Positions 11,114 through 12,350 of a stretch of 21,407 bases of DNA are shown here, piece by piece (within the stretch, counting starts at the first letter, position 1; each line of letters opens with the position of its first letter). Both the position numbers and the translations under genes were made by a program. The stretch is from the UHGV virus genome UHGV-0286550, one strand, 5' to 3'. This DNA is from a virus. The notes below the pieces were generated by a model. It ran no database searches. It was not told the origin of the DNA and was given only the letters and a program-made list of their open reading frames with translations.

Positions 11114-11506
11114 ATGTCTGAACCCTTATCAGGCGGCGGAGCTGTGGCAGTCACCATCGGTGGTGCCAGTGTGTTTGGTCTTCTCACCAATACCGATTTC
11201 GGGGTCGTGGTGGGCGCGTTTGCCGGGGCGCTTTTTGTTGTCACGCAGCAGAAAGAAATCCCGGTCTGGCGAATGGCCATCCACCTGCTCGTCGCATTTG
11301 TGGTTGGCGTTCTGGGGGCTGGCGTGGCTGCGTCACTGATGCAGTGGCTGACCCACTACAACGACAAGCCGCTCGATGCATTGTGTGCGGTCGGTGTCTC
11401 GGCGTTATCCATCAAGATACTGACCTTTCTTTATCAACAGGAAATTTCATCGCTGTTCGGCCTGTTTTCCAGACTGCGCGGCGGAGGGGGTGGAAATGGA
11501 AAGTAG
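11114..11506 (+). CDS. Holin-like membrane protein, 3-4 predicted TM segments (130 aa)
   Basis: First gene downstream of the candidate late promoter, AGGAG 6 nt upstream. Gly/Ala-rich hydrophobic helices and a charged C-terminal tail; directly precedes the endolysin. Confidence 0.5.
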   Translation: MSEPLSGGGAVAVTIGGASVFGLLTNTDFGVVVGAFAGALFVVTQQKEIPVWRMAIHLLVAFVVGVLGAGVAASLMQWLTHYNDKPLDALCAVGVSALSIKILTFLYQQEISSLFGLFSRLRGGGGGNGK

Positions 11507-11774
11507 CCTTGCCGGTATCGTGAACGTCTGGCTGTGTCTCACCATTGTTCTGGGGTTGTTTGTGTATCGCCGCCACGGTGCGGCGCACAAACCGATGATT
11601 ACCTGGCTGGCGTACTGGCTGATGCTCGGCTACGTCATCATCCCGTTCCGCTGGCTGTCCGGTACATACACGCAATCCAGCTGGCTGGTTGTGGCGCTGA
11701 ATCTGGTTTTCTGTGCGCTTATCGTGTGGGCGCACGGGAATTTGTCAAAAATCCTTTCGTTATTGCGGAGGTGA
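11496..11774 (+). CDS. Small 3-TM membrane protein (92 aa), possible second holin or antiholin
   Basis: ATG with GGAGGGGG 5 nt upstream; overlaps the preceding gene by 11 nt in another frame. Three hydrophobic segments; ends 2 nt before the endolysin start. Confidence 0.5.
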   Translation: MESSLAGIVNVWLCLTIVLGLFVYRRHGAAHKPMITWLAYWLMLGYVIIPFRWLSGTYTQSSWLVVALNLVFCALIVWAHGNLSKILSLLRR

Positions 11775-11776
11775 AT

Positions 11777-12154
11777 ATGTCGGGAAAATTCCGTTTCAGT
11801 CAACGTAGCGAGAAAAATCTGGCTGACGTAAAGCCACAACTGGTGGCAGTTGTACGCCGTGCGCTGGCGTTGTCGGACGTCGATTTTGGTATTACCGAAG
11901 GTTTACGCACGAAAGAACGTCAGAAACAACTTGTCGCTGAAGGCAAGAGCCAGACCATGAACAGCCGTCACCTTACTGGCGATGCCGTTGATGTCGTGGC
12001 TTACGTTGGTAGCACTATTTCATGGGACTGGCCGTTATACGAAAAAATCGCCCGTGCCTTTAAACAGGCTGCCGCAGAGCTGGGTGTCGCCATCGAATGG
12101 GGCGGAGACTGGAAAACGCTGAAAGACGGGCCTCATTTCCAGTTAAAACGCTGA
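11777..12154 (+). CDS. Endolysin, peptidase M15 (VanY/L-Ala-D-Glu peptidase-like; 125 aa)
   Basis: Zn-peptidase motifs SRHLTGDAVD (SxHxxGxAxD) and C-terminal DGPHFQ. ATG with GGAGG upstream; the ORF-track start at 11534 is an upstream extension. No signal sequence, so holin-dependent. Confidence 0.8.
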   Translation: MSGKFRFSQRSEKNLADVKPQLVAVVRRALALSDVDFGITEGLRTKERQKQLVAEGKSQTMNSRHLTGDAVDVVAYVGSTISWDWPLYEKIARAFKQAAAELGVAIEWGGDWKTLKDGPHFQLKR

Positions 12155-12167
12155 TGCGGGACGGGTT

Positions 12168-12350
12168 ATGAACAGAAGTCGCTGGCCCCACAGAACGCCA
12201 CGTAAAGCCGCGCGCTGTGTTCTGGCCCTGTTTCTGATGATGTTGCTTCCGGTGGGATGCTCAGACATTAACAGAGCGGGCCAGCTGTTTGACGCGGCGG
12301 CGCAGGTCTGCCGGATTATTGACGGTATCCGGCAGTGTTCGCAGAACTGA
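12168..12350 (+). CDS. Small putative lipoprotein (60 aa), possible spanin-type lysis component
   Basis: Basic n-region, hydrophobic core and lipobox-like LLPVGC followed by SD; four Cys in total. Located right after the endolysin. No i-spanin partner is recognisable nearby. Confidence 0.4.
   Translation: MNRSRWPHRTPRKAARCVLALFLMMLLPVGCSDINRAGQLFDAAAQVCRIIDGIRQCSQN

Follow-up and report, generated by a model that had tools for sequence, protein, structure and literature searches.

Three classes of phage protein that disrupt the outer membrane have been described, the two-component spanins, the unimolecular spanins (u-spanins) and the disruptins, and roughly 13-15% of phages of Gram-negative hosts possess no recognisable spanin, the route by which these phages pass the outer membrane being an open question (PMC6139136; bioRxiv 10.1101/515445). 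The present analysis concerns lipo60, the predicted 60-amino-acid (aa) product of the last gene in the lysis cassette of UHGV virus genome UHGV-0286550, a stretch of 21,407 nucleotides (nt) that is referred to in its entirety as the window. The gene lies in the slot that spanin genes fill in sister cassettes, the N-terminus of its product is homologous to that of a known family of outer-membrane spanins (o-spanins), and no inner-membrane spanin (i-spanin) that could serve as its partner was found in the surrounding prophage. Lipo60 is tentatively read here, with somewhat less than even confidence, as what remains of an o-spanin that has lost its partner and now serves the outer-membrane step of lysis.

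Among the described systems, the LysB/LysC spanins of P2, as represented by 118970_sal3 of Salmonella and SKA5 of E. coli, share with lipo60 both the slot after the endolysin and the pair of PF16931 and PF05449 genes upstream, and the n-region motif RSHW[ST]HR.PR, the hydrophobic h-region and the lipobox are homologous between the two. Unlike LysC, lipo60 has no LysB/Rz partner gene, and where the mature part of LysC comprises ~75 residues and is Pro-rich, that of lipo60 comprises 30 residues, contains no Pro and is predicted to be helical. Since so short a mature part cannot bridge the periplasm, lipo60 is not a classical spanin. The u-spanin of phage T1, gp11, is likewise the product of a single lysis-cassette gene and has an outer-membrane lipoprotein signal, as is predicted for lipo60; however, it also possesses a C-terminal transmembrane domain (TMD), which is its inner-membrane anchor, and a periplasm-spanning domain. 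Lipo60 has neither and, lacking the C-terminal TMD, is not a u-spanin. The disruptin gp28 of phage phiKT is also a small single protein (about 56-60 aa), proposed to replace spanins in a spanin-less phage, but it is a cationic amphipathic peptide, whereas mature lipo60 has a net charge of 0 (window copy) to -2, three Cys and a lipoprotein-type signal. As it is not cationic, lipo60 is not a disruptin either.

The window derives from a Mu-like prophage, and the lysis genes of Mu itself consist of a signal-anchor-release (SAR) lysozyme, gp22, the spanins gp23/gp23.1 and a DUF2730 releasin, gp25, with no holin (PMC9239132). The cassette of the window occupies the same genomic slot, between the Mor and DUF1804/terminase genes, but contains no SAR endolysin, DUF2730 releasin or spanin pair, and has two holin-family genes; no lysozyme or DUF2730 match was obtained for any of the seven proteins encoded in that interval, as delimited by Mor and DUF1804. 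The first-pass annotation of this DNA had proposed that the module is swapped relative to that of Mu, and this proves to be the case, as counterparts of gp22, gp23/gp23.1 and gp25 are absent and the module is one that is common to lambdoid phages such as phiP27.

The lipo60 gene and its conserved position

The cassette consists of four close-packed genes on the + strand, at 11114-12350, to which the two regions of the lipo60 gene are added here:

11114-11506, + strand: hol130, 130 aa, PF16931 (Phage_holin_8), phrog_198 holin, 3-4 hydrophobic segments
11496-11774, + strand: hol92, 92 aa, PF05449 (Phage_holin_3_7, 'putative 3TM holin'), phrog_217, three hydrophobic segments
11777-12154, + strand: M15 endolysin, 125 aa, L-alanyl-D-glutamate peptidase of M15C type, 2-nt gap after hol92
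12168-12350, + strand: lipo60, 60 aa, prolipoprotein-like, phrog_7528, 13-nt gap after M15
12168-12257, + strand: lipo60 signal-peptide region, with basic n-region MNRSRWPHRTPRKAAR, 14-residue h-region and lipobox residues L-P-V-G
12258-12347, + strand: predicted mature lipo60, 30 residues, with predicted lipidation at Cys31, Ser at +2 and invariant C48 and C57

All four open reading frames (ORFs) were confirmed at these coordinates. A chromosomal prophage of E. coli RIVM_C036569 matches the window with 100% identity and bears the same RefSeq/PGAP calls. The family assignments fit the lysis cassette that the first-pass annotation had described, and the order of its genes recurs in related loci, as set out below.

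The lipo60 protein reads MNRSRWPHRTPRKAARCVLALFLMMLLPVGC followed by SDINRAGQLFDAAAQVCRIIDGIRQCSQN. Its only family match is to phrog_7528, which is listed without function. Hydropathy analysis reveals a single hydrophobic segment (residues 13-35, ending in VGC) and no second one, the C-terminus (…IRQCSQN) being hydrophilic. The maximum hydrophobic moment of the mature part is moderate (0.5), and Jpred, as given in SpaninDB, predicts 83% helix for the phiP27 copy.

The family was followed through 90 loci, assembled from an IMG/VR scan together with look-ups, which contain 62 distinct DNA sequences and 52 distinct proteins. The lipo60 ORF is intact in every one of the 90, and the ratio of nonsynonymous to synonymous substitution rates (dN/dS), 0.31 for the whole gene, falls to 0.24 in the mature part and to 0.22 in the n-region. 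Because all copies are intact and dN/dS is 0.31, lipo60 is not a chance ORF and is, judged by this conservation, a real gene under purifying selection. Four residues (G30, C31, C48 and C57) are invariant among the 52 proteins, and C48 and C57 are also retained by distant members of the family; periplasmic Cys for intermolecular disulfides are present in about 96% of spanin pairs.

The n-region (codons 1-16, 12168-12215) is unusually long, with 16 residues of which 6-7 are basic or His, and no gene overlaps it in the window. Since it is long and conserved although nothing overlaps it, the cytoplasmic N-terminus of lipo60 is suggested to have a function of its own. LysC-type o-spanins carry the same motif, there in overlap with the frame of the i-spanin.

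The position of the gene is as constant as its sequence. The order hol130-hol92-endolysin-lipo60 is found in 83 of the 90 loci, the other seven being mostly contigs that are cut off or too short upstream; in each of these 83, hol130 is paired with hol92. An endolysin was found in 86 loci, of M15 type in 56 and of GH108 type in 30. Spacing is tight in 56/86, with lipo60 beginning 13-14 nt past the M15 stop or overlapping the GH108 stop by 4 nt, and in the remainder small inserted genes lie between endolysin and lipo60. The family amounts to 178 clusters at 90% identity, all from Enterobacterales, and an exhaustive HMMER search of 1.84 billion proteins yielded just 22 representative clusters. 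Its most distant members retain an L-[VA]-G-C lipobox and a C-x16-C-x8/9-C pattern and stand directly after an M15 or GH108 gene, behind one lambda-S-type holin (PF05106) in place of the hol130/hol92 pair. As these members exchange both holin and enzyme, it is the position after the endolysin, rather than the identity of either, that is the constant feature.

In cassettes of lambdoid phages that combine the same holin pair with another endolysin (118970_sal3, SKA5 and ENT39118), lipo60 is absent and its exact slot is filled by an i-spanin of Rz/LysB type with an overlapped or embedded o-spanin. Lipo60 and intact spanins are mutually exclusive in the sample. The sole copy that lies beside an intact Rz/Rz1 pair, downstream of it in the Shiga toxin (Stx) phage GER2 (3001-3168 of locus L010, corresponding to 46808-46975 of GER2), has decayed to a pseudogene that lacks a start codon and contains three in-frame stops, which fits redundancy with spanins.

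N-terminal kinship with LysC-type o-spanins and the search for a partner

The o-spanins of sal3 and SKA5 belong to the P2 LysC family (PF23793) and begin MQNSRSHWSHREPRKISKW…LLTGC. The N-terminal pattern of lipo60, M[NST]R[SK]HWTHR[TM]PR…VGC, is strikingly similar. BLASTP of lipo60 against the N-terminus of LysC-type o-spanins returned E 6e-6 with the window copy and E 3e-8 with that of phiP27, and profile-profile alignment of lipo60 with LysC by hhalign gave a probability of 97.2% (E 4e-11) over residues 1-34 only, that is, over the n-region, h-region and lipobox. The simplest history compatible with these sequences would be that an overlapped LysB/LysC locus lost its whole i-spanin gene and that the Pro-rich linker of the o-spanin was lost or replaced. 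Mature lipo60 was also compared with LysC as though it were that protein minus the linker; the best local alignment falls on the C-terminal helix of LysC (SLDLNVSLLSALGQC…) and, being not significant (hhalign E 0.13, shuffle z <=2.3), is a hint only.

A partner was sought at three scales. In the window, the six frames over 10000-14000 contain no + strand ORF of at least 30 aa over 12168-12350 besides lipo60, and the M15 reading frame closes 16 codons past its stop. Throughout the 36-kb prophage, lipobox and hydropathy scans of all annotated coding sequences and of all unannotated ORFs disclosed neither a further lipobox ORF nor a further single-TMD membrane protein; the sole returns were an early protein of 136 aa, whose single hydrophobic segment is a Sec-type signal peptide, and two tiny ORFs at the far end, by the tail fibres. 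In the 90 loci, no homologue was detected by tblastn with Rz/LysB of three types, and a generic scan for ORFs with a single N-terminal TMD detected no conserved type-II ORF, the hits being toxin signal peptides, TerL and compositionally odd alternative-frame ORFs. The distant loci, which bring the total to about 100 related loci, likewise contain no partner except for one lineage-specific protein of 144 aa. These results agree with the earlier description of lipo60 as a lone lipoprotein, and the i-spanin that might have been embedded in an overlapping frame, which was raised at that stage as a possible refutation, was not found.

The 144-aa protein (phrog_6169) has an N-terminal TMD and is encoded ~245 nt downstream of the lipo60-like gene in locus L100 (4461-4895), and also in L101 and L102; it is absent from L098, L103 and the window, and may be either a lineage-specific partner or an unrelated moron. 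Two neighbours of the cassette, p68 (12371-12577) and p95 (10639-10926), were considered as membrane partner or releasin and rejected, having no TMD and no match to DUF2730.

Possible roles of lipo60 in lysis

If lipo60 acts at the outer membrane, lysis by this cassette might proceed in three steps. Hol130 and hol92 would gather in the inner membrane, acting there either as holin and antiholin or as the two subunits of one holin, while the folded M15 enzyme, which has no export signal, would therefore build up in the cytoplasm. Upon triggering of the holin, M15 would reach the murein and cleave the L-Ala-D-Glu bond of the peptide stems, a specificity that its close homology to T5 Lys and ChiX implies. 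Lipo60, exported by Sec, lipidated at Cys31 and, because Ser rather than Asp is found at +2, presumably sorted to the inner leaflet of the outer membrane, would supply the last step, in that it might destabilise or fuse the outer membrane after loss of the murein, once turgor presses the inner membrane against it. Its acting form would probably be a disulfide-linked oligomer. At +2 the window copy has Ser, other members of the family carry Thr, Ala, Val, Gly or Ser, and Asp never occurs there.

Several points weigh against this reading. The family is known from sequence alone. The mature part of lipo60 has no significant similarity to an o-spanin (hhalign E 0.13), and lipo60 does not match PF23793 at E up to 10. 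Its 30 residues are too short for the periplasm, so that the mechanism would have to be new, and the AlphaFold2 (AF2) model is a single helix of low confidence, with a predicted local distance difference test (pLDDT) score of 63.5 overall and about 55-58 in the mature part. The argument from the decayed copy rests on the single case of GER2. The lipobox that the first-pass annotation had assigned is conserved across the whole family, and is canonical (L-V-G-C or L-A-G-C) in the sister and most distant subfamilies, that of the phiP27 copy being LLVGC, but that of the window copy, LLPVGC, has Pro at -3 and so departs from the consensus [LVI][ASTVI][GAS]C, which makes lipidation a prediction for this subfamily. 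A search of the literature on Pro at this position found nothing useful; non-consensus spanin lipoboxes, AWAC for example, have been demonstrated to be functional. Finally, loss of spanins is conditionally tolerated in laboratory culture, and complementation assays with λ Rz/Rz1 use 10 mM MgCl2 (PMC6139136), and these phages could lack an outer-membrane step altogether, with lipo60 doing something else.

A bolder form of the same reading would make lipo60 a further class of outer-membrane disruptor beside the two-component spanins, u-spanins and disruptins. It would then be a lipid-anchored, Cys-cross-linked helical peptide of 30 residues, derived from LysC by loss of both the i-spanin partner and the periplasm-spanning linker, and able by itself to carry out the final step of lysis in enterobacterial phages of Mu-like and lambdoid type, among them those that convert their hosts to Stx2e and LT-II production. 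We regard this extended proposal as doubtful.

It is unlikely, although less so than the other two alternatives below, that lipo60 is an envelope lipoprotein with no part in disrupting the outer membrane, a relic of a spanin locus reused, for instance, in lysis timing, superinfection exclusion or modification of the envelope of the lysogen, in phages that lyse without a dedicated outer-membrane step. Its mature domain is indeed unlike that of any known spanin, and the region just past the endolysin is a moron hotspot in relatives, where KilA-N, LT-II and pertussis-like toxin genes and genes for small membrane proteins are found. However, morons vary, whereas lipo60 is constant across Mu-like and lambdoid backbones, with two types of endolysin and two of holin, and always in the lysis operon. 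Its exclusivity with intact spanins in the sample, and its decay at the sole Rz/Rz1 locus, also speak against such a reuse. The exclusion lipoproteins Cor and T5 Llp map beside tail or receptor-binding genes and are not known from lysis cassettes.

That lipo60 is instead an ordinary o-spanin with an unrecognised i-spanin, whether a holin-family protein, an atypically anchored small membrane protein, the product of a distant gene or a host protein, appears improbable. In its favour, SpaninDB files the phiP27 copy of lipo60 as the o-spanin (20706-20861) of a 'separated' two-component spanin whose i-spanin is placed at 20348-20542 (Kongari et al. 2018, PMC6139136), and type-I or otherwise anchored i-spanins are possible in principle (Kongari et al.). 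This pair is the shortest of that survey, with 62 periplasmic residues in total (PMC6139136). The listed o-spanin is the orthologue of lipo60, at 55% identity. The listed i-spanin, of 64 aa and with a TTG start, occurs only in copies of phiP27 (3/90 loci), has no counterpart in the window or in the other 87/90 loci, and matches no PHROG. In locus L004 it lies at 3349-3543 on the + strand (20348-20542 of phiP27), antisense to an unannotated ATG-initiated ORF of 90 aa on the - strand (3333-3605, corresponding to 20332-20604) that matches phrog_36812 (E 5e-20) and has homologues elsewhere among the loci at 45% identity, which do not preserve the 'i-spanin' frame. Being restricted to phiP27, without a PHROG and antisense to a conserved gene, it was rejected as a conserved partner, and the i-spanin call in SpaninDB is most likely an artefact, a spurious ORF. 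As it has no counterparts elsewhere, the lipo60 family is better described as partnerless than as a minimal two-component spanin.

A second set of candidates is offered by the small membrane proteins that roughly one in four lambdoid relatives encode between endolysin and lipo60. They comprise C-terminal-TMD proteins of 57-65 aa (phrog_4493/1115), which lie directly upstream of lipo60, and a 44-aa transmembrane protein (phrog_4906), at the following coordinates of the related loci:

Locus L005, 2326-2499: small inserted membrane protein
Locus L010 (phage GER2), 1630-1779: small membrane protein
Locus L014, 3662-3844 and 3862-3996: small inserted membrane proteins
Locus L015, 3719-3916: small inserted membrane protein

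These proteins may be lysis accessories. They were rejected as obligatory partners, since neither the window nor the majority of loci encode the C-terminal-TMD proteins, and since in the Stx phage GER2 a copy of one of them, at 90% identity, lies just before a normal Rz. Nor are hol130 and hol92 obligatory, given that distant relatives of lipo60 use a different holin, and a further single-TMD membrane protein is not encoded anywhere in the prophage. Were there a short partner, the 30 residues of mature lipo60 would still be far below the width of the periplasm.

Equally improbable is the idea that lipo60 of the window subfamily stays unlipidated, as an uncleaved N-in/C-out signal anchor of the inner membrane with a 30-residue periplasmic tail that acts at the holin/endolysin-release step, either antiholin-like or resembling Lcc6 of Shewanella phage LambdaSo; the Pro at -3 in this Mu-like subfamily, the long, basic and conserved n-region (dN/dS 0.22) with its suggested cytoplasmic function and the existence of small single-TMD proteins of the holin step (Lcc6, of 65 aa, and the Mu releasin gp25) accord with it, but Gly30-Cys31 is invariant in 52/52 distinct proteins, L-[VA]-G-C is canonical in every other subfamily, the most distant ones included, a non-consensus spanin lipobox such as AWAC has been demonstrated to work and lipo60 shares a homologous N-terminus with genuine lipoprotein o-spanins.

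The surrounding module, its setting and significance

Hol130, hol92 and M15 are, by their family matches, ordinary members of known families. Hol130 matches PF16931 with E 3e-25 (89.1 bits against a gathering cut-off of 26.4) and phrog_198 with E 9e-42, carries the PGAP label 'phage holin family protein', begins with ATG behind an AGGAG Shine-Dalgarno sequence and ends in a Gly-rich, charged tail. Hol92 matches PF05449 (E 6e-17, 61.8 bits against a cut-off of 25.4) and probably serves as antiholin or as a second holin subunit. The two genes overlap by 11 nt (11496-11506), as the first-pass annotation had reported of two small membrane proteins, and hydropathy supports their membrane topology with 3-4 and three segments, respectively; the overlap suggests translational coupling.

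The M15 protein matches PF13539 (E 1e-12, 49 bits against a cut-off of 25) and the endolysin family phrog_465 (E 1e-73). It also aligns with solved L-Ala-D-Glu peptidases, namely ChiX (5opz, E 2e-42), 8q2g and T5 Lys (2mxz, E 5e-25), the alignments with 5opz and 8q2g spanning residues 4-123. Its Zn-ligand motifs are likely SRHLTGDAVD and GPHFQ. It contains no signal or SAR segment, no 19-aa window having a mean hydropathy above 1.4, and together with the full-length match to solved enzymes this upholds its earlier description as a signal-less endolysin. With respect to this gene only, the cassette resembles T5 and the Serratia ChiWXYZ module, as M15 aligns end to end with both T5 Lys and ChiX; here, however, it sits in a prophage late operon rather than in a secretion module. 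The Serratia enzyme ChiX serves chitinase secretion, alongside holin-like and spanin-like genes.

In sister Mu-like prophages, for example that of strain Ec55, a GH108 muramidase takes the place of M15 while the holins and lipo60 are near-identical. Where only the endolysin differs (11777-12154 of the window against 2678-3223 of locus L002, and L027-L037), the flanking holins are 96-100% and lipo60 87-95% identical, and the sequences part company within the final codons of hol92 and rejoin within the opening codons of lipo60. Since such prophages differ by GH108 versus M15 between near-identical flanks, the endolysin gene is exchanged as a unit within a conserved frame. The converse pattern is seen in the comparison with phiP27, in which M15 is 91% identical (aa) to that of the window and its neighbours just 49-61% (hol130 61%, hol92 49%, lipo60 55%).

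This lambdoid Stx2e phage carries the same module, as holin genes L28 and L29, endolysin gene L30 and an unannotated lipo60 homologue at 20679-20858. The four genes are also found together in phiSTEC1575-Stx2k and vB_Apl-pPE4, which like phiP27 are deposited as complete phage genomes, and in Yersinia, Cronobacter, Citrobacter and Salmonella prophages with various terminase types. We read 11114-12350 as a complete, horizontally mobile lysis module that replaces the lysis genes of Mu; the cassette overall is of the known phiP27 type, newly seen in a Mu-like backbone. The prophage, of ~36 kb, encodes a Mu transposase, AAA ATPase, GemA, Mor, DUF1804, TerL, a DUF935 portal, a head protein of Mu gpT type and a contractile tail, the cassette being flanked by Mor and the 95-aa protein upstream and by the 68-aa protein and DUF1804 downstream. 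The stretch 10600-13200 finds matches in 117 of 5426 complete E. coli genomes, in prophages only, and a search with the window DNA found no near-identical DNA among deposited phages.

Further observations concern the surroundings of the cassette. A perfect G/C-rich dyad, GGGGGTG-CTGAA-CACCCCC, lies at 10950-10968, ~164 nt upstream of hol130 within the 187-nt gap after the 95-aa gene, and recurs unchanged in roughly half of the Mu-like loci. It may be a terminator-like hairpin without a T-run or else a binding site for an activator of Mor/C type. The 136-aa early-region protein returned by the partner scans (8820-9230) is annotated as hypothetical. It combines a Sec-type signal peptide (VKKMVFVAALLTITQQVHA followed by SAA) with a low-complexity stretch rich in Ala, Asn and Gln, and probably represents a secreted moron. 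The Mu-like packaging module contains an insertion, a DNA methyltransferase gene (13124-13864), that separates the DUF1804 gene from terL. In lambdoid relatives the lysis module is flanked by toxin cargo, comprising Stx2e, LT-IIa/b and pertussis-like toxin subunits, none of which is carried by the window prophage:

Locus L004, 503-1738: toxin cargo
Locus L007, 1276-2507 and 4298-5438: toxin cargo
Locus L013, 5988-7140: toxin cargo
Locus L014, 1489-2217: toxin cargo

Lipo60 was already listed as an o-spanin, in the form of its phiP27 copy in SpaninDB. The present analysis adds how large its family is and how it is distributed, shows the family to be independent of the type of holin and of endolysin, proposes for it a descent from LysC-type o-spanins and makes it probable that the sole partner suggested for it does not exist, by which a probable false i-spanin call in that database is corrected. 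Circulation of the lysis module that Stx2e and LT-II toxin phages carry extends to Mu-like prophages, and within it the endolysin gene is exchanged as a separate unit. As a partnerless gene of apparent o-spanin derivation in the spanin slot, found in inducible phages such as phiP27, lipo60 presents a small and genetically tractable case in E. coli, and is a candidate for spanin-independent disruption of the outer membrane by one protein. Should it prove to work alone, a periplasm-spanning tether would not be obligatory for this step, which would constrain the models of spanin-mediated membrane fusion.

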